Under the pieces are notes generated by a model that was not told where the DNA came from, did not search any database, and was given only the letters and a program-made list of their open reading frames with translations. From a virus (taxonomy: Duplodnaviria; Heunggongvirae; Uroviricota; Caudoviricetes): 21,826 nucleotides of DNA. Made by a program: the position numbers and the translations under genes. Where the stretch lies: IMG/VR virus record IMGVR_UViG_2541047848_000001. One strand, given 5' to 3'. Shown piece after piece: positions 1 through 7,481 of this stretch. The first letter of the stretch is position 1. Each line of letters opens with the position of its first letter.

Positions 1-84
1 GTCGTTGATTACCGCGTTGTGAAGATGCCTGTTACCAAAGGTGGGAGGCTGGAACTGACCATCACCGAAATGGGGAATGAATGA
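1..84 (+). CDS. rusA: Holliday junction resolvase RusA, C-terminal fragment (5' end outside window)
   Basis: Frame open from window edge to TGA at 82-84. The tail ...VVDYRVVKMPVTKGGRLELTITEMGNE matches the RusA C-terminus as I recall it. Sits directly upstream of a ylcG-like ORF and Q, as in DLP12-type nin regions. Confidence 0.6.
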   Translation, partial: VVDYRVVKMPVTKGGRLELTITEMGNE

Positions 85-221
85 TGTTTGAGTTTTATAT
101 GGCAGAACTTCTTCGCCACCGCTGGGGGCATCTGCGCTTATATCGTTTCCCCGGTTCTGTTTTGACCGATTACCGAATACTGAAGAATTACGCCAAAACC
201 CTGACAGGAGCAGGAGTATGA
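81..221 (+). CDS. ylcG: small nin-region protein, YlcG-like (46 aa)
   Basis: ATG at 81 overlaps the rusA stop (ATGA). Translation MMFEFYMAELLRHRWGHLRLYRFPGSVLTDYRILKNYAKTLTGAGV, stop at 219-221. Length and position between rusA and Q fit ylcG of DLP12. Below the ORF-track size cutoff, found by hand translation. Confidence 0.55.
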   Translation: MMFEFYMAELLRHRWGHLRLYRFPGSVLTDYRILKNYAKTLTGAGV

Positions 222-306
222 AGTCAGAGATAACAATCAACTAATACTGTTTTGTTGATTTTTGCTTGTAATTGGCGTTCTGGTCTGAGTTTTGTGGAGT
301 AAGTTG

Positions 307-684
307 ATGCGTGATATTCAGATGGTTCTTGAGCGTTGGGGAGCGTGGGCGGCTAATAATCATGAAGATGTGACCTGGTCGTCCATTGCCGCCGGTTTTA
401 AGGGATTAATTCCTTCAAAAGTAAAATCTCGCCCACAATGTTGTGACGATGACGCGATGATCATTTGCGGGTGCATGGCCCGTCTGAAAAAGAACAACAG
501 CGATTTGCATGATTTATTGGTGGACTATTATGTCGGCGGCATGACTTTTATGGCGCTTGCACGTAAGCATGGGCGATCTGATTGTTGGGTTGGCAGGATG
601 CTTCAGAAAGCTGAGGGCGTAGTGGAGGGTATGCTGATGGTGTTGGATCTCCGATTGGAGATGGATGCTGATTGTTCGAAATAA
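307..684 (+). CDS. quuD: late-gene antitermination protein Q (phage 82/21 type)
   Basis: ORF-track 292..684; the likely start is ATG 307 ([14 protein letters not shown]...) with GGAG 7 nt upstream. Cys-rich CCDDD...ICGC motif typical of Q proteins. Sits after rusA-ylcG. Symbol assigned by resemblance to DLP12 quuD, from memory. Confidence 0.8.
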
Positions 685-696
685 TTAAAGGAAAAG

Positions 697-762
697 TTGC
701 TGTCTGATTGTCATTAGTCTAACATTTAAAATGTTGGAATCGCAACGTAGTTATTATCATAT
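697..762 (+). promoter_or_regulatory. candidate late promoter PR'/qut region downstream of Q
   Basis: Expected position for PR' (between the Q stop and the first terminator). Weak candidate hexamers: TTGCTG 697-702 with TAACAT 720-725, or TTGGAA 734-739 with TATCAT 755-760. Not resolvable by eye. Confidence 0.25.
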
Positions 763-784
763 AACAGCTTGTTTCCTGATTTAG

Positions 785-813
785 CCAGCCTCCCCAAAGG
801 CTGGTCTTTTTCT
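785..813 (+). terminator. intrinsic terminator (tR'-like) between Q and the convergent lipocalin gene
   Basis: CCAGCC (785-790), 8-nt loop, GGCTGG (799-804), then TCTTTTTCT. Lies about 100 nt after the Q stop and 27 nt before the 3' end of the minus-strand lipocalin gene. Confidence 0.5.
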
Positions 814-839
814 AATAAGTATTATTTCGGGTAGGGATT

Positions 840-1364
840 TTATTGTTTAACCCATAATAATTCATTGATATTGAATCCCAACTTTTGAGCGGTTCGCACA
901 TAGTCTGCTTTTACTTTATCTGGAATAGTTGGGGTCCTTGCCAGAATCCATAGGTATTCTCTGTTCGGACCACTGACAAGAGCATACTTATACTCATCAT
1001 CCAGTTTGATTACATTATAGCCACCATAGAAGGGGCCAAAAAACGAAACCTTCAATGCTGCAGTTTTAGTATCTCCAGTAAAGTATGCTTTACCTTCGCT
1101 CTCGCTCCATTTATTTTTCGTTGGATCGTATCCACGGTTAAGTACACGAATCCCTCCGTCGTTCCGTTTTCCATAAGTAGCGCTGACCTGTTCCAGACCA
1201 CGTTCGAACCGGTTCTCGAGGCGAGCTATTTCATACCATTTTCCGAGGTAGCGGTTGGCGTCAAAATTTGTAATCGGCTGCACACCTTTAGGTGGTGTCG
1301 GGGCCTTACATGCTATAAGAGTGAAAGAGAGTGCAATGCCAGTCAACACAGGCCATAACTTCAT
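840..1364 (-). CDS. lipocalin-family outer-membrane lipoprotein (Blc-like)
   Basis: 174 aa. Signal peptide with lipobox LIAC. Lipocalin signature NFDANRYLGKWYEIARLENRFERG and ...KVSFFGPFYGGYNVI... closely parallel bacterial lipocalin Blc. AGGA SD upstream of the start on the minus strand. The only convincing minus-strand gene in the window. Confidence 0.8.
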   Translation of the reverse strand: MKLWPVLTGIALSFTLIACKAPTPPKGVQPITNFDANRYLGKWYEIARLENRFERGLEQVSATYGKRNDGGIRVLNRGYDPTKNKWSESEGKAYFTGDTKTAALKVSFFGPFYGGYNVIKLDDEYKYALVSGPNREYLWILARTPTIPDKVKADYVRTAQKLGFNINELLWVKQ

Positions 1365-1556
1365 AATAAATCCTGTACTTTTGATAGTTGAGAGTAAGTA
1401 TGAAAGATAGATGATTACGACCGATCACTTAAAGAACTTTCATACTATATTAGGAATAGTCCATAACAGAAAAATTGTCAGTGATGACGCCAGAAAGGCA
1501 ATTTATTCCGTGCACTACACAGTTTATGTGTTAATGAATTAGTCAAGGGGGAGAAT

Positions 1557-2516
1557 ATGATAAAAAAACCTGTGATTGGAATCAGCGGTTGTTTGGCCGG
1601 TTCTGCTGTTCGTTTTGATGGTGGTCACAAAAGAGCTGACTTTTTAATGGACAAATTAGTGGAATGGGTAACATTCAGACCAGTATGTCCGGAAATGGCT
1701 ATAGGGCTGCCAGTTCCGCGTCCTGCTCTACGTCTTGTGCGCTCGATGCAAGGAAATATACGGATGTGTTTCAGCCACGACCAGAATGAGGATGTGACAG
1801 AGAGAATGACAGAGTTTAGTCGTTCTTATATGGACAAATTAAAGGATGTATCGGGGTTTGTGGTTTGTGCTAAATCTCCCAGCTGTGGCATGGAGCGCGT
1901 GCGTGTCTATGATGAAAATGGTAATCGAGGTCGTAAAGATGGAGTGGGACTATTTACGAGCACTTTGATGGAAAAGTTTTCCTGGCTACCGGTTGAAGAG
2001 GATGGGCGATTACATGATCCAGTGCTTCGTGAGAATTTTGTTGAAAGAGTTTTTGCTTTGCATGAGCTCAATCACCTTTACAAGGAGAAATTATCAAGAA
2101 GAGAGTTATTAGCTTTTCATAGTCGTTATAAGCTTCAGTTGTTGGCGCATAGTCAGGCAGGCTATAAAGATATGGGACCATTTGTGGCTGCAATACACGA
2201 GTGGGCGGACCTTGAATCATACTTTGAGGTGTATCGTGATAAGCTGATGGCGATTCTCAGAAAACCTGCATCACGTAAAAATCACACGAATGTGCTGATG
2301 CATATACAGGGGTATTTTAGTAACTACTTAAGTACACGCCAGCGTAAAGAGTTGAGCGAGGTTATACTTAACTATCGTTCTGGCACATTACCTCTTCTTG
2401 CGCCGTTGACTCTGCTGAAGCATTATCTGGGTGAGTATCCTAATGATTACTTGCTTACACAGAATTACTTCGATCCCTATCCGGACGAACTGGCTCTAAG
2501 ACTGATGGTAAATTAA
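1557..2516 (+). CDS. DUF523/DUF1722 fusion protein (YbgA-like C-terminal domain; TudS-like Cys-containing N-terminal domain)
   Basis: 319 aa. N-terminus MIKKPVIGISGCLAGSAVRFDGG with further Cys at CPEMA and CAKSPSCG, the pattern of DUF523 [4Fe-4S] proteins. C-terminal half resembles YbgA/DUF1722. Strong SD AAGGGGGAG before ATG 1557. Confidence 0.7.
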   Translation: MIKKPVIGISGCLAGSAVRFDGGHKRADFLMDKLVEWVTFRPVCPEMAIGLPVPRPALRLVRSMQGNIRMCFSHDQNEDVTERMTEFSRSYMDKLKDVSGFVVCAKSPSCGMERVRVYDENGNRGRKDGVGLFTSTLMEKFSWLPVEEDGRLHDPVLRENFVERVFALHELNHLYKEKLSRRELLAFHSRYKLQLLAHSQAGYKDMGPFVAAIHEWADLESYFEVYRDKLMAILRKPASRKNHTNVLMHIQGYFSNYLSTRQRKELSEVILNYRSGTLPLLAPLTLLKHYLGEYPNDYLLTQNYFDPYPDELALRLMVN

Positions 2517-2858
2517 TTGTATGCGATATCATCCAAAAGGATGAGTTCCTGCATGCAGGATATTTACAATCGTAAAAACTACACTATGATACCCAGAGTG
2601 TCAGTTTGTATAAAAACTCTGTTTACGCTGAAGAAACAATTGAGATGCAACTTAAAGTTGGTAAACATGCCAGTCAAAATATATAATATTATGATTCCAC
2701 GCAGCTATATATAATATAACAGATTGGTTTAATAATTTGTCTTTGTGAGTTAAATACATAATTTTATACTTGTGATGCAATGAAATTTTCCTTATTGTTG
2801 AACTGGCGAATATTGATTTTCCACCTATACTTACCTGGTGTAACCCCAATGATATCAG

Positions 2859-3599
2859 GTGGATAATATGCCATACATATGTTCTATCATTTTGGTGTTG
2901 AACTCGTTTGATGTCCGAATTGGTAAAGAAGATATTTTGTTTAAAAAAGGAAGTGCTGTTCTCATTGATTACAATTTAAAAGATTTTTTTTCATCAAATA
3001 TAGATCATGTAATGATCGTAGATGTTGAAGAGAAAACAGTTAATGATTTCTTTAAAAGCAACACACTCTCACCTTTTTCTGTAAGAAGGTTTTATCCGGC
3101 ATACTTGATGGTGGAATGTGAAGATTTTTCATTGTTAAAGAACTTGATTGCATGCTTGAATTGTGATGGCAGAACTGTGGATTTTGTTAGAAATCAAATA
3201 TCACTTGCATGTCTTGCTATCTTATCTTCAGAGAAAATAGTGCAAAGTTTTTTATTTGGATGTCTTAATAGTTTAGGAAGTAAAGTTAAGGCTATTATTC
3301 ACACGGATATATCTGCAGCATGGAGACTTTGTGATATATCTTCAAGACTGTATCTGAGTGAAAGTCTGTTAAAAAGAAAATTAAAGCACGAAGGCTTATC
3401 ATTTAGTAAGTTAATTCTTGAAGAGCGAATGGTGATGGCGGAAAGGTTATTAAGCTACAATTTATATTCTGTTGGAAAAGTTGCTGAGATATGCGGTTAT
3501 GAAAACACGTCATATTTTGTAAGTGTTTTCAGAAGGTATTTTGGTGTTCCTCCCCATCAATATTCATCAAGATTTTTTTTAGAAAAAGACATGATGTAA
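2859..3599 (+). CDS. AraC/XylS-family transcriptional regulator, AppY/EnvY-like
   Basis: 246 aa. C-terminal HTH region ...SESLLKRKLKHEGLSFSKLILEERMVMAERLL...GYENTSYFVSVFRRYFGVPPHQY parallels AppY/EnvY. N-terminus M..YICSI...NSFD also AppY-like. Gene and upstream region are strongly AT-rich. Confidence 0.8.
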   Translation: MDNMPYICSIILVLNSFDVRIGKEDILFKKGSAVLIDYNLKDFFSSNIDHVMIVDVEEKTVNDFFKSNTLSPFSVRRFYPAYLMVECEDFSLLKNLIACLNCDGRTVDFVRNQISLACLAILSSEKIVQSFLFGCLNSLGSKVKAIIHTDISAAWRLCDISSRLYLSESLLKRKLKHEGLSFSKLILEERMVMAERLLSYNLYSVGKVAEICGYENTSYFVSVFRRYFGVPPHQYSSRFFLEKDMM

Positions 3600-3786
3600 C
3601 GTGATGCGTTTTAATGATTTTGTAATTTTCGTATTTGATAATTGTATGATGCTTTCAGCTACGCCAGAATAATCGCGGCGTTTTTCTTTTTGAATAGATG
3701 TTCAAGCCTTACGCTAATGTAACTTCTATACCTTTCCTCTTCGTTCCGAACCGTGTACACCATCCGTTATTTGCGGAGGTGAGGCT

Positions 3787-4002
3787 ATGAAATCCATGGA
3801 TAAGTTAACAACGGGTGTCGCCTATGGCACCTCAGCAGGTAGTGCCGGTTACTGGTTTTTACAGCTGCTCGATAAAGTCACGCCCTCACAGTGGGCAGCA
3901 ATAGGTGTGCTGGGTAGCCTGGTATTTGGCCTGCTGACGTACCTGACAAACCTTTATTTCAAGATTAAAGAAGATAAGCGCAAGGCTGCGAGAGGTGAAT
4001 AA
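3787..4002 (+). CDS. essD: class II holin (phage 21 S-type pinholin) with dual-start motif
   Basis: 71 aa, [24 protein letters not shown]...; two TMDs; Met1/Met4 dual-start as in S21. SD GGAGGTGAGG upstream. Immediately precedes the endolysin. Confidence 0.9.
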
Positions 4003-4499
4003 TGCCTCCATCATTACGAAAAGCCGTTGCTGCTGCTATTGGTGGCGGAGCAATTGCTATAGCATCAGTGTTAATCACTGGCCCAAGTGGTAACGATGGT
4101 CTGGAAGGTGTCAGCTACATACCATACAAAGATATCGTTGGCGTATGGACTGTATGTCACGGGCATACAGGAAAAGACATCATTCCCGGTAAAACGTATA
4201 CCGAAGCAGAATGCAAAGCCCTCCTGAATAAAGACCTTGCCACGGTAGCCAGACAAATTAACCCGTACATCAAAGTCGATATACCGGAAACAACGCGCGG
4301 CGCTCTTTACTCGTTCGTCTATAACGTGGGCGCAGGCAATTTCAGAACATCTACTCTTCTTCGCAAAATAAACCAGGGCGATATCAAGGGCGCATGTGAC
4401 CAGCTACGTCGCTGGGCATACGCTGGCGGTAAGCAATGGAAAGGCCTGATGACTCGTCGTGAGATTGAGCGTGAGGTCTGTTTGTGGGGGCAACAATGA
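4002..4499 (+). CDS. rrrD: SAR endolysin (T4-lysozyme-like muramidase, R21 type)
   Basis: 165 aa. Gly/Ala-rich N-terminal signal-arrest-release segment [20 protein letters not shown]. Catalytic E-x8-D-x5-T spacing ([17 protein letters not shown]). Start overlaps the holin stop. Confidence 0.9.
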
Positions 4500-4960
4500 G
4501 CAGGGTAACCGCGATTATCTCCGCTCTGGTTATCTGCATCATCGTCTGCCTGTCATGGGCTGTTAATCATTACCGTGATAACGCCATTACCTACAAAGCC
4601 CAGCGCGACAAAAATGCCAGAGAACTGAAGCTGGCGAACGCGGCAATTACTGACATGCAGATGCGTCAGCGTGATGTTGCTGCGCTCGATGCAAAATACA
4701 CGAAGGAGTTAGCTGATGCGAAAGCTGAAAATGATGCTCTGCGTGATGATGTTGCCGCTGGTCGTCGTCGGTTGCACATCAAAGCAGTCTGTCAGTCAGT
4801 GCGTGAAGCCACCACCGCCTCCGGCGTGGATAATGCAGCCTCCCCCCGACTGGCAGACACCGCTGAACGGGATTATTTCACCCTCCGGGAACGACTGGTA
4901 ATGATGCAGGCCCAACTTGAAGGTGCTCAGCAATACATAACCGAGCAGTGTTTAAAGTAA
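4496..4960 (+). CDS. rzpD: Rz i-spanin
   Basis: ATG 4496 overlaps the endolysin stop (ATGA). N-terminal TMD then coiled-coil periplasmic domain. ORF-track start 4484 is an upstream GTG in the same frame. Confidence 0.85.
4716..4901 (+). CDS. rzoD: Rz1 o-spanin lipoprotein, embedded in Rz in the +1 frame
   Basis: 61 aa. Lipobox VVGC. Proline-rich [15 protein letters not shown]. Entirely nested within Rz. Confidence 0.85.
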
Positions 4961-5097
4961 AATCTTAACTACAATATGATTCATTTTGATGATTGTTTCA
5001 TAAGGAACAGTGAAGTAAGATCTAAGAGGAGTTAAATTTTATACAGTATAATCATAATATTGCAGCAAGGTGGTTATAATTGAAAGAATATTTAGAT

Positions 5098-6555
5098 ATG
5101 AATACATCTCATGTAAGAGTTGTTACTCATATGTGTGGGTTCCTGGTTTGGCTCTATAGTCTTTCAATGTTGCCACCAATGGTTGTAGCATTGTTTTATA
5201 AAGAAAAAAGCCTGTTCGTTTTCTTTATAACTTTCGTTATATTTTTTTGCATTGGTGGCGGAGCGTGGTATACAACTAAGAAATCTGGCATTCAATTACG
5301 TACCCGTGATGGGTTTATTATAATTGTAATGTTTTGGATTTTGTTTTCTGTTATTAGTGCATTCCCTTTATGGATTGACTCAGAACTTAATTTAACGTTC
5401 ATTGATGCTCTGTTTGAAGGGGTTTCTGGAATAACAACAACAGGAGCAACTGTAATTGATGATGTTAGTTCATTACCTCGGGCATATTTGTACTATCGGT
5501 CACAGTTAAATTTTATAGGTGGTTTAGGAGTTATTGTTCTGGCGGTTGCTGTATTGCCATTATTGGGTATTGGTGGTACAAAGCTTTATCAGTCAGAAAT
5601 GCCGGGGCCATTTAAGGATGACAAACTCACTCCCCGCCTGGCCGATACGTCACGGACACTGTGGATAACTTATTCTTTATTAGGTATTGCTTGTATTGTC
5701 TGTTATAGACTTGCAGGAATGCCTTTGTTTGATGCTATTTGTCACGGGATTTCCACAGTTTCGCTTGGTGGTTTCTCAACTCATAGCGAGAGTATCGGAT
5801 ATTTTAATAACTATTTGGTTGAGCTGGTGGCTGGTTCTTTTTCCCTGCTATCGGCTTTCAACTTCACTCTTTGGTATATTGTTATTAGCAGGAAAACGAT
5901 AAAACCTTTAATCAGAGATATTGAACTTCGTTTCTTTCTGTTAATAGCCTTAGGGGTGATCATTGTTACCTCTTTCCAGGTCTGGCATATAGGTATGTAT
6001 GACTTGCATGGAAGTTTTATTCATTCGTTTTTTCTTGCCAGCTCCATGCTCACTGATAATGGTTTAGCTACGCAGGATTATGCAAACTGGCCCACGCACA
6101 CGATAGTGTTTTTGCTGTCGTCAAGTTTCTTTGGGGGATGTATAGGTTCAACTTGTGGTGGAATTAAGTCACTTCGATTTCTTATACTTTTCAAACAAAG
6201 CAAACACGAGATAAATCAGCTTTCTCATCCCAGAGCGTTGTTGAGTGTAAATGTAGGAGGGAAGATAGTTACAGATCGTGTAATGAGGTCTGTATGGAGT
6301 TTCTTTTTTCTTTATACTCTCTTCACGGTGTTTTTTATACTGGTGTTAAATGGTATGGGATATGATTTTCTTACATCATTTGCAACAGTGGCTGCATGTA
6401 TTAATAATATGGGATTAGGTTTTGGGGCTACTGCATCGTCATTCGGAGTGCTTAATGACATTGCAAAATATTTAATGTGCATAGCTATGATTCTTGGTCG
6501 CCTTGAAATTTATCCTGTTATTATATTGTTTTCAGGTTTTTTTTGGCGCTCCTAA
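5098..6555 (+). CDS. trkG: Trk-system potassium uptake protein, TrkG/TrkH family
   Basis: Polytopic membrane protein with repeated pore-loop-like GxGG segments. 485 aa from ATG 5098, which is the TrkG length as I recall it. Position right after Rz/Rz1 is the known location of trkG in Rac. AT-rich. An in-frame TTG at 5080 has a better SD (see findings). Confidence 0.85.
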   Translation: MNTSHVRVVTHMCGFLVWLYSLSMLPPMVVALFYKEKSLFVFFITFVIFFCIGGGAWYTTKKSGIQLRTRDGFIIIVMFWILFSVISAFPLWIDSELNLTFIDALFEGVSGITTTGATVIDDVSSLPRAYLYYRSQLNFIGGLGVIVLAVAVLPLLGIGGTKLYQSEMPGPFKDDKLTPRLADTSRTLWITYSLLGIACIVCYRLAGMPLFDAICHGISTVSLGGFSTHSESIGYFNNYLVELVAGSFSLLSAFNFTLWYIVISRKTIKPLIRDIELRFFLLIALGVIIVTSFQVWHIGMYDLHGSFIHSFFLASSMLTDNGLATQDYANWPTHTIVFLLSSSFFGGCIGSTCGGIKSLRFLILFKQSKHEINQLSHPRALLSVNVGGKIVTDRVMRSVWSFFFLYTLFTVFFILVLNGMGYDFLTSFATVAACINNMGLGFGATASSFGVLNDIAKYLMCIAMILGRLEIYPVIILFSGFFWRS

Positions 6556-6641
6556 TATATGGCTGATTTATAATTGTGAGTTTAATATTATATTGACTCA
6601 CTCATTGATCCAATACCTAACTTTACCAGCAACACCTCCGC

Positions 6642-6676
6642 CCCCAGTAGCACTGGCTGCTGGGGTGCGTTTTATT
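6642..6676 (+). terminator. intrinsic terminator downstream of trkG
   Basis: 10-bp stem CCCCAGTAGC/GCTGCTGGGG (one G-U wobble), loop ACTG, then TGCGTTTTATT. Confidence 0.45.
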
Positions 6677-6692
6677 CATAAAGCAAGGCTGT

Positions 6693-7481
6693 ATGAGCGA
6701 GAAATTAAAGATAGTCTATCGCCCATTACAAGAATTGTCACCGTATGCGCACAACGCCAGGACGCACAGTACTGAGCAGGTGGCACAACTGGTAGAAAGT
6801 ATTAAGCAATTCGGCTGGACTAATCCGGTGCTGATTGACGAAAAGGGCGAAATTATTGCGGGTCACGGTCGTGTTATGGCGGCTGAAATGCTCAAAATGG
6901 ATTCTGTTCCGGTCATTGTTCTGTCTGGCCTGACGGATGAGCAGAAAAAGGCGTACCGCCTGGCAGATAATCGCCTACCGATGAATGCTGGCTGGGATGA
7001 AGATCTGTTGCGGATGGAGCTGTCGGACCTAATCAATGCTGATTTTGATGTCTCCCTGACAGACTTCGGCCCGACAGAAATTGATGAACTGTTGACGGAT
7101 GTTTTGCCCGGTACAGGAAATAAGGAGGAGCCGTATACGACGAAAATTGATACGCCTGTTTATGAGCCGTCGGGCGGTAAACCGGATATCAGTGAACTGT
7201 ACGACGATACGAAAACTCAGGAGCTGATCAGCCGGATACGTTCGGCGTCCCTTGAGCCTGATATTGAGAAATTCCTCCTGTGTGCGGCAGAACGTCACAC
7301 GGTGTTTAATTTCAGCAGAATTGCGGACTATTACGCTCATGCCCCCGCTGAAATTCAGTGCCTTTTCGAGGAGTCGGCGCTGGTGATCATTGATTATCAG
7401 CAGGCTATTGAAAATGGATTTGTCCGAATGACGCAGCGCATGGTGGCGATCATGCATAGCGGGGAGGAGGAATATGCGTGA
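6693..7481 (+). CDS. ParB-like nuclease domain (ParB/sulfiredoxin fold) protein
   Basis: 262 aa. N-terminal ParB signature ...IVYRPLQELSPYAHNARTHSTEQVAQLVESIKQFGWTNPVLIDEKGEIIAGHGRVMAA. Acidic C-terminal half. Stop overlaps the start of the next gene. Confidence 0.8.
   Translation: MSEKLKIVYRPLQELSPYAHNARTHSTEQVAQLVESIKQFGWTNPVLIDEKGEIIAGHGRVMAAEMLKMDSVPVIVLSGLTDEQKKAYRLADNRLPMNAGWDEDLLRMELSDLINADFDVSLTDFGPTEIDELLTDVLPGTGNKEEPYTTKIDTPVYEPSGGKPDISELYDDTKTQELISRIRSASLEPDIEKFLLCAAERHTVFNFSRIADYYAHAPAEIQCLFEESALVIIDYQQAIENGFVRMTQRMVAIMHSGEEEYA

Follow-up and report, generated by a model that had tools for sequence, protein, structure and literature searches.

IMG/VR record IMGVR_UViG_2541047848_000001 (Duplodnaviria; Heunggongvirae; Uroviricota; Caudoviricetes) comprises 21,826 nucleotides, referred to here at its full length as the window, and represents a lambdoid prophage of Escherichia coli of the Rac type. 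Between the gene for its late antiterminator, Q, and its holin gene, three cargo genes occupy positions 840-3599, encoding a lipocalin lipoprotein (Blc), a predicted tRNA 4-thiouridine desulfidase (RudS) and a regulator of the AraC type. We think that these genes probably constitute a composite lysogenic-conversion "moron" cassette, placed between the late terminator tR' and the holin gene and made up of two parts of different origin. An initial annotation of the window, made from its letters alone, had placed three open reading frames and the spacers 1365-1556, 2517-2858 (to 2867 with the later regulator start discussed below) and 3600-3786 in this interval, and these were recovered with the same coordinates and strands. 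The features of the slot are as follows.

307-684, plus strand: gene for a Q antiterminator of QuuD type (Pfam Phage_antitermQ, E 2.5e-51; the RefSeq start corresponds to window position 307), the upstream boundary of the slot
685-775, plus strand: PR'-like leader with a candidate TTGCTG-17-TAACAT at 687-715, from alignment with DLP12, 1H12 and IdasGreatGrand
784-815, plus strand: tR'-like intrinsic terminator, an 8-bp GC-rich hairpin followed by a T-run, upstream of all cargo
840-1364, minus strand: blc-like gene for an outer-membrane lipocalin lipoprotein of 174 residues, antisense to late transcription
1365-1556: divergent blc-rudS spacer of 192 bp, GC content 0.34, presumed to hold the genes' own promoters; weak promoter-like match at 1388-1415
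1557-2516, plus strand: rudS, a TudS(DUF523)-DUF1722 fusion of 319 residues, both domains found by Pfam at E of about 1e-40
2517-2558, plus strand: hairpin directly after the rudS stop codon, lacking a T-run; RNA fold -19.3 kcal/mol
2563-2590, plus strand: candidate regulator promoter TTTACA-16-TATGAT, implying a leader of about 270 nt
2868-3599, plus strand: gene for an AraC/XylS regulator of the GadW/YdeO/AppY clade, 243 residues, with HTH_18/HTH_AraC matches; GC content 0.318
3661-3690, plus strand: weak terminator-like hairpin (ACGCC...GGCGT, then T5CT5) 3' of the regulator gene
3787-4002, plus strand: holin gene of EssD/P21 type (Pfam Phage_holin_2_1, E 2e-35), the downstream boundary of the slot

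Further information about the nature of the slot was obtained from DLP12 of E. coli K-12, whose Q and holin are of the types seen here. The quuD region of DLP12 is 93% identical in nucleotides to the window up to position 666, where homology ends, to restart at 3776, and between the shared flanks DLP12 holds nmpC in place of the trio. Since the same flanks enclose other cargo there, we regard the slot as a site of variable, dispensable cargo, in line with the initial annotation, which had seen genes unrelated to phage propagation in the interval; its flanks are also as proposed, since Pfam identifies Q on the upstream side and, on the downstream side, a P21-type holin, lysozyme and Rz. The position between Q and the holin is where stx resides in Stx phages, and cspB and cspF are cargo of the Qin prophage between Q-PR'-tR' and the holin. 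Our own slot comparisons cover DLP12 and a Qin-like prophage that bears the trio, the stx and Qin cases being general knowledge. Like stx, nmpC and cspB/cspF, the window cargo follows the late terminator and precedes the holin, and as with slot cargo elsewhere it would be expected to undergo read-through by Q-modified polymerase. It differs from them in its gene content, with three genes of which one lies on the opposite strand. The base composition of the cargo deviates from that of the phage backbone (GC content 0.436 for blc, 0.433 for rudS and 0.32-0.40 for the spacers, while late genes are at 0.477 and lysis genes at 0.503). The earlier description of all three genes as AT-richer thus applies strongly to the regulator and the spacers, while blc and rudS lie just about 4-7 points below the late and lysis genes.

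The middle gene encodes the Pfam domains PF04463 (2-thiour_desulf) at residues 7-149 and PF08349 (DUF1722) at residues 192-309. Proteins with this TudS-DUF1722 fusion were named RudS in 2024 and remove 4-thiouridine (s4U) from tRNA in a [4Fe-4S]-dependent manner (Jamontas et al., NAR 2024, PMC11417400). One of the six enzymes assayed in that study, RudS_vir, is gp66 of Escherichia phage 1H12 (YP_009909557), to which the window protein is 93% identical over all 319 residues. The cluster cysteines C12, C44 and C110 are present in the window protein, as are the catalytic residues E46, R55, S107 and S109, compared with the positions given in PMC11417400, and S239 and R240, the equivalents of tRNA-contact residues mutated in the Pseudomonas enzyme RudS_KT. 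The two phage proteins share their architecture, the Cys12/Cys44/Cys110 numbering and the Glu/Ser/Ser/Arg catalytic set, and their genes hold the same position within the same three-gene cassette; the window protein is a different allele, with 21 substitutions, on a Rac-like and not a Jouyvirus backbone. By sequence, the middle gene is RudS, a [4Fe-4S] tRNA 4-thiouridine desulfidase. The initial annotation had named the families of all three proteins rightly, and what it called a putative Fe-S enzyme turns out to be a named and assayed one (PMC11417400).

In vivo, the s4U of tRNA fell 4.7- to 26-fold with every RudS variant assayed, and RudS_KT shortened the growth delay induced by ultraviolet A (UVA) light, while E. 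coli YbgA, which consists of DUF1722 alone, was inactive (PMC11417400). In our alignments K-12 YbgA matches the DUF1722 half only, at 49%. The same study reports that rudS often occurs in light-responsive operons with MerR/LitR regulators and states that E. coli has no RudS; the context of the cassette is not discussed there (PMC11417400). That E. coli lacks RudS fails for about 20% of complete genomes, as a prophage copy is found in 1,064 of 5,426. In BL21 (NZ_CP053601.1, 1558651-1558797) only the first 147 nt of rudS remain, which leaves that strain effectively free of RudS and suits its role as assay host in PMC11417400.

The gene on the opposite strand encodes a lipocalin that matches Pfam Lipocalin_2 (E 1e-43), the NCBIfam Blc subfamily model (315.1 bits, above the cutoff of 267) and solved structures of E. 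coli Blc (PDB 3mbt/1qwd, E about 1e-68). Read by eye, its signal peptide has a lipobox, LIAC, at residues 16-19, and the N-terminus reads MKLWPVLTGIALSFTLIAC followed by K. K-12 Blc (b4149; PDB 1QWD/2ACO/3MBT) likewise combines the Lipocalin_2 fold with a lipoprotein signal and lipobox. From homology, an outer-membrane location and binding of lysophospholipids or fatty acids would be expected for the prophage protein. The chromosomal blc of K-12 adjoins ampC, unlike the prophage copy, which adjoins rudS. In sequence the prophage protein is 59% identical to K-12 Blc versus 79-81% to Citrobacter and Enterobacter copies linked to rudS. An earlier study of lambda phages from the infant gut counted blc as a moron, present in more than 50% of them (Mathieu et al. 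2020, PMC6969025).

The third gene was previously given a start at GTG 2859. The RefSeq annotation of an identical copy uses ATG 2868, 9 nt further on, and an AGGTGG Shine-Dalgarno sequence lies 6 nt 5' of that ATG; the GTG is probably 9 nt too early. By BLASTP, the product aligns over its full length with GadW (34% identity, residues 1-233), AppY (32%, residues 1-232) and YdeO (32%, residues 1-236), while GadX and AdiY align in the helix-turn-helix (HTH) half only and EnvY partially, at 29%. It aligns end to end with the NCBIfam YdeO model at 127 bits, below the cutoff of 348, and reaches 85 bits with the GadX model, below the cutoff of 500. With identities of 29-34% and scores under the curated equivalog cutoffs, orthology to AppY, EnvY, YdeO or GadW was rejected. 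The specifically AppY/EnvY-like character first proposed for the regulator does not stand up against its equal distance from GadW, AppY and YdeO; by sequence, it is a member of the GadW/YdeO/AppY clade and the orthologue of none. A specific name for it was sought in public sources and none is given, the source names of its relatives being uninformative.

With AppY, YdeO, GadW and PsrA/PsrB/PatE the regulator shares a two-domain AraC/XylS organization of about 245 residues, an MxxxCS(I/V)I N-terminus and a very AT-rich gene, and with AppY, PsrA/B and PatE also a prophage location. Its family is essentially confined to prophages of Escherichia and Shigella. The nearest paralogue (53%) stands alone between a tail-fibre assembly gene and the integrase gene in phages mEp332 and ev099, and appY occupies the same kind of place in DLP12, between tail-fibre genes and int; the regulator studied here differs from both in occupying the Q-holin slot. 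A phage fragment derived from EDL933 matches in the HTH half only (41%). AppY, PsrA/B and PatE are prophage AraC-like regulators that activate the acid-resistance genes gadE/hdeA (PMC10057817; PMC10877973).

In an AlphaFold model of the regulator (pLDDT 83), a helical linker joins a beta-sandwich at the N-terminus to a double HTH. Over its full length the model is closest in fold to Rns, CsvR and ToxT (Foldseek E 5e-11 to 3e-7, about 250 aligned columns), and its HTH domain superposes on GadX (3mkl) at 1.4 A. Rns and CsvR of enterotoxigenic E. coli and ToxT of Vibrio cholerae sense fatty acids, and for ToxT sequence matches reach into the N-terminal domain. However, identity to the three is just 17-20% and the global TM score 0.40-0.44, and nothing points to fatty-acid binding by the prophage protein.

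Given these identities, a function in anti-phage defence, which the initial annotation had raised, or in superinfection exclusion seems very unlikely. Prophage accessory slots do often house defence genes, and some exclusion proteins are, like Blc, surface lipoproteins. None of the three proteins matches any of the 5,027 PADLOC models at E <= 0.01, however, two of them have well-defined biochemical identities outside defence, and in other genera blc-rudS is a chromosomal locus of housekeeping type.

The three genes were then followed across complete E. coli genomes, where the contiguous 3.1-kb trio was found at >=80% coverage in 992 of 5,426. Such recurrence of the same arrangement means that it is not due to chance. 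Single-gene queries gave 1,042 genomes for blc, 1,064 for rudS and 992 for the regulator, so that 93% of rudS-bearing genomes contain the full trio (992/1,064), part of the shortfall being copies interrupted by insertion sequences and truncated remnants. Linkage of the trio is thus conserved, which speaks against the independent occurrence without linkage that the initial annotation had named as counter-evidence to its proposal. Twelve sequenced temperate phages have the cassette in the same slot, namely IdasGreatGrand (99%) and the 1H12 group (89%). At least five prophage backbones carry it, always between Q and holin genes of the same types:

Backbone 1: Rac-like with trkG (the window)
Backbone 2: decayed remnant between ybhC and ybhB, the attachment site of lambda (L001)
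Backbone 3: Qin-like prophage with hokD, rem, ydfU and cspI (L076)
Backbone 4: lambda-like prophage with P, ren, ninB and iss
Backbone 5: KilA-N/DUF968 type

The constancy of the Q and holin types across these backbones would be expected if the slot moved as a unit through recombination in its flanks, which we take as the likely mode of spread. Two contigs of a metagenome-assembled genome (MAG) labelled 'Candidatus Nanosynbacter sp.' (D148_maxbin.008; L056 and L061) encode Q, Blc, RudS, regulator, holin and lysozyme at 94-100% protein identity; these pieces of a Saccharibacteria MAG are almost certainly mis-binned E. coli prophage DNA.

Divergence between alleles is correlated over the three genes, and the bands of >=99% identity hold 626 genomes for blc, 619 for rudS and 584 for the regulator. 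Relative to the 1H12-type allele, synonymous divergence (dS) is 0.20 for blc, 0.29 for rudS and 0.36 for the regulator, with nonsynonymous-to-synonymous ratios (dN/dS) of 0.07, 0.11 and 0.26, respectively, and no internal stops; within the regulator, dN/dS is 0.33 in the N-terminal domain and 0.14 in the HTH domain. All three genes are under purifying selection, and they are not pseudogenes, a case that the initial annotation had named as counter-evidence. One could still picture the cassette as functionless DNA that hitch-hikes neutrally and is decaying, as IS1, IS2 and IS3 insertions interrupt it in some genomes and rudS of BL21 is reduced to its 147-nt remnant. We give this picture very little credence: frames stay open across alleles up to the highest dS, dN/dS is low throughout, the genes are full-length in about 1,000 genomes and the catalytic residues are intact.

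The origin of the two parts was examined in chromosomes outside E. coli, with one genome per species. Sixty-two chromosomal rudS homologues, 66-76% identical, were found in Citrobacter, Kluyvera, Enterobacter, Leclercia, Lelliottia, Klebsiella, Pectobacterium and other genera. In 41 of these loci a Blc homologue is encoded divergently upstream of rudS, and these homologues are 69-81% (mostly 76-81%) identical to prophage Blc, versus 59% for Blc of E. coli. The blc-rudS gap is about 1.4 kb in 33 loci, while the two genes are directly adjacent in Citrobacter sedlakii (187-bp spacer) and Citrobacter sp. JGM124 (228 bp), compared with 192 bp in the window. The nearest chromosomal relatives are 76% (rudS) and 81% (blc) identical, with a GC content of 47-62% against 43% in the phage. 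No AraC regulator, Q or holin gene is present in these chromosomal blc-rudS loci. Because the regulator is absent from them, has a lone paralogue elsewhere and differs by 12 points in GC content from the pair, the sequences indicate two separate acquisitions, one of a pre-linked blc-rudS pair and another of an AT-rich regulator gene with its own upstream region.

In the one gap that we inspected, that of Enterobacter cloacae (L026, 3663-4898), an MlrA-like MerR regulator gene and a hydroxyisourate-hydrolase/transthyretin-like gene lie between blc and rudS. The MlrA-like protein falls short of the MlrA cutoff (196 versus 417 bits), and its gene fits the light-responsive operon theme; the phage cassette lost or never had such a gene. 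This suggests that the ancestral pair was under dedicated MerR-type control that the cassette does not have. In Citrobacter braakii ATCC 51113 (L004, L005), two rudS copies are present, each 76% identical to the window protein and with no blc neighbour within 5 kb.

The ancestry also bears on a proposal of the initial annotation, that the island is a module under its own regulator. In this alternative, the trio would be a single co-regulated stress module in which the AraC-type protein activates blc and rudS from the spacer 1365-1556, with a fatty acid as candidate signal, as for Rns and ToxT. The near-complete linkage in rudS-bearing genomes and the joint divergence of the three genes would agree with it, as would the predicted fold of the regulator, which is that of the fatty-acid-sensing Rns/CsvR/ToxT family, and the binding of lipid by Blc. 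However, the regulator is missing from 41 of 41 chromosomal blc-rudS loci, where any intervening regulator is MlrA-like and of the MerR family, its GC content is 12 points below that of the pair, and its 53% paralogue resides in the tail fibre-integrase slot without blc or rudS. Moreover, the blc-rudS spacer and the region upstream of the regulator have no common repeat, the closest characterised relatives of the regulator act on host regulons, and the linkage can be explained if recombination in Q and holin swaps the small slot as a whole. Neither ancestry nor base composition supports this proposal, and we consider the co-regulated module unlikely, if worth keeping in mind. We continue to favour a composite cassette.

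How such a cassette might be expressed can be considered from its non-coding sequences. The terminator upstream of the cargo folds at -23.3 kcal/mol (z = -3.3) and is kept in all cassette-bearing phages, and the leader that precedes it, a putative PR' region, has a ATATAACAG motif at 759-767 in common with DLP12. The terminator scan found no strong plus-strand terminator between 815 and 3786, the weak hairpin 3' of the regulator gene having failed its stricter version, and no structured RNA in 1-7000 matched Rfam at gathering thresholds. The match TTTACA-16-TATGAT is the top promoter-like match within 1-5200 (10/12), and its block is unchanged across alleles whose flanks have diverged. The hairpin behind rudS is possibly an element that stabilises the transcript or terminates it weakly. 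The blc-rudS spacer is conserved among cassette alleles and not with the chromosomal Citrobacter spacers, so an ancestral operator within it is not inferable.

An operator shared between the spacers was also sought, and only short two-copy repeats appeared. The most suggestive, TATnATATAACAG, follows the pattern TAT(C/A)ATATAACAG(C/A)TTG(T/G)TT and occurs at 755-774 and at 2710-2729. The first copy falls in the Q-tR' interval, and DLP12 keeps its ATATAACAG core; the second copy, upstream of the regulator, is present in window-type and Qin-type alleles and missing from 1H12-type alleles. The core has two matches in the window versus 0.18 expected, and 2 of 100 shuffles reach two. The repeat could have been left by a second late-promoter leader, or it may be due to chance, and we do not build upon it.

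We hypothesize the following course of events. The blc-rudS pair would have been captured from an enterobacterial chromosome that already had blc and rudS side by side. Each unit would be transcribed in the lysogen from its own promoter, and RudS would there provide an activity otherwise missing from E. coli, stripping sulfur from tRNA s4U by means of a [4Fe-4S] cluster on C12, C44 and C110. As s4U is the near-UV photosensor of tRNA, RudS could blunt UVA-induced tRNA cross-linking and the stringent response or growth arrest. Blc would add an outer-membrane lipid-binding protein and with it a capacity to withstand envelope or lipid stress. The regulator would act on host stress regulons (acid resistance, gadE/hdeAB) and most likely not on its two neighbours, by analogy with AppY, PsrA/B and PatE. 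After induction, Q-modified RNA polymerase would pass tR' and cross the cargo to the holin gene, as it does with stx, in sense for rudS and the regulator, which would be boosted, and in antisense for blc.

The last step raises the question of whom the cassette serves. It could primarily benefit the phage, with RudS made mainly from the Q-dependent late transcript and stripping host tRNA of s4U during lytic growth, so that translation keeps running under near-UV or stringent conditions or a tRNA-directed host response is blunted; any benefit to the lysogen would be secondary. The orientation of rudS and the regulator, both in sense on the late transcript downstream of tR' with no strong terminator before the holin, is consistent with such a function, plaque-forming temperate phages carry the cassette, and RudS reduces the UVA growth delay. 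However, blc belongs to the ancestral pair, and late transcription, running antisense to it, would silence it; the literature searched, moreover, offered no connection of s4U with phage defence. In addition, the cassette is intact in decayed prophages incapable of lytic growth, such as the remnant at the lambda attachment site (L001), which points to a benefit at the level of the host. We therefore judge a function mainly for the phage to be quite improbable, and retain lysogenic conversion as the preferred interpretation.

Several observations weigh against this interpretation. RudS_vir, the closest assayed enzyme, appeared to be the least active RudS in the published assays despite relatively high protein levels (PMC11417400), and the UVA phenotype comes from the Pseudomonas enzyme and not from a phage RudS. 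The targets proposed for the regulator derive purely, by analogy, from relatives about 33% identical to it. The tight linkage of the three genes is equally expected from a co-regulated module. As to expression, the promoters are consensus matches in a scan whose total is at chance level (16 found versus 14 expected), and the DLP12 alignment made to place the PR' start gives only short conserved patches with variable spacing. Expression data for blc, rudS or the regulator in a lysogen were looked for and none were found.

A bolder possibility, which we put forward as speculation and hold to be rather unlikely, is that the prophage tRNA-modification eraser brings about lysogenic conversion in roughly one in five E. 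coli strains, hosts that otherwise lack RudS, and by removing the s4U photosensor alters their near-UV/stringent response, or else that RudS made in the lytic phase sustains translation or evades a tRNA-directed host response, while the linked regulator rewires acid and stress regulons. The cassette would then be a two-pronged switch of stress physiology, delivered by the phage, and not a set of unrelated passengers.

Beyond the slot, the lysis genes continue with lysozyme and Rz, followed by trkG, a ParB-like gene, a TAGT-family glycosyltransferase gene and the terminase, portal, coat, tail-tube and tape-measure genes:

4002-4499: lysozyme gene
4484-4960: Rz gene
5080-6555: trkG, K+ transporter gene (TrkH family by Pfam; GC content 0.38), directly after Rz

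In the identical stretch of AR_0085, RefSeq has the last of these genes under the name trkG. AT-rich and separate from the cassette, it counts as another moron of this prophage and marks the backbone as Rac-like. The ParB_N-domain gene (6693-7481) overlaps by 8 nt a 216-residue gene (to 8124) that matches Pfam PF20691, TET-associated glycosyltransferase (E 1.4e-34), both just upstream of the terminase genes. The two may be a DNA-modification pair; no TET/JBP gene is seen close by.

Some of the elements described here were already known: blc as a lambda moron (PMC6969025), the rudS of the cassette, which had been cloned and assayed (PMC11417400), and prophage AraC-like regulators as a kind. Our analysis adds how tightly the three genes are linked and how prevalent they are, the descent of blc-rudS from a chromosomal pair, and for the unnamed regulator a separate origin and a place in its clade; it also corrects the published view that RudS is absent from E. 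coli.

In summary, this is an ordinary though well-resolved moron cassette and no new category of system, so its significance is modest. It offers a clear example of moron assembly, in which a pre-linked chromosomal pair is joined with a separately acquired AT-rich regulator. It also draws attention to an abundant, uncharacterised regulator of the GadW/YdeO/AppY clade, whose relatives AppY, PsrA/B and PatE reprogram acid resistance, motility and virulence. With RudS encoded intact by prophages in about 20% of complete E. coli genomes, differences between strains in near-UV growth delay and in tRNA s4U content could be determined by their prophages.

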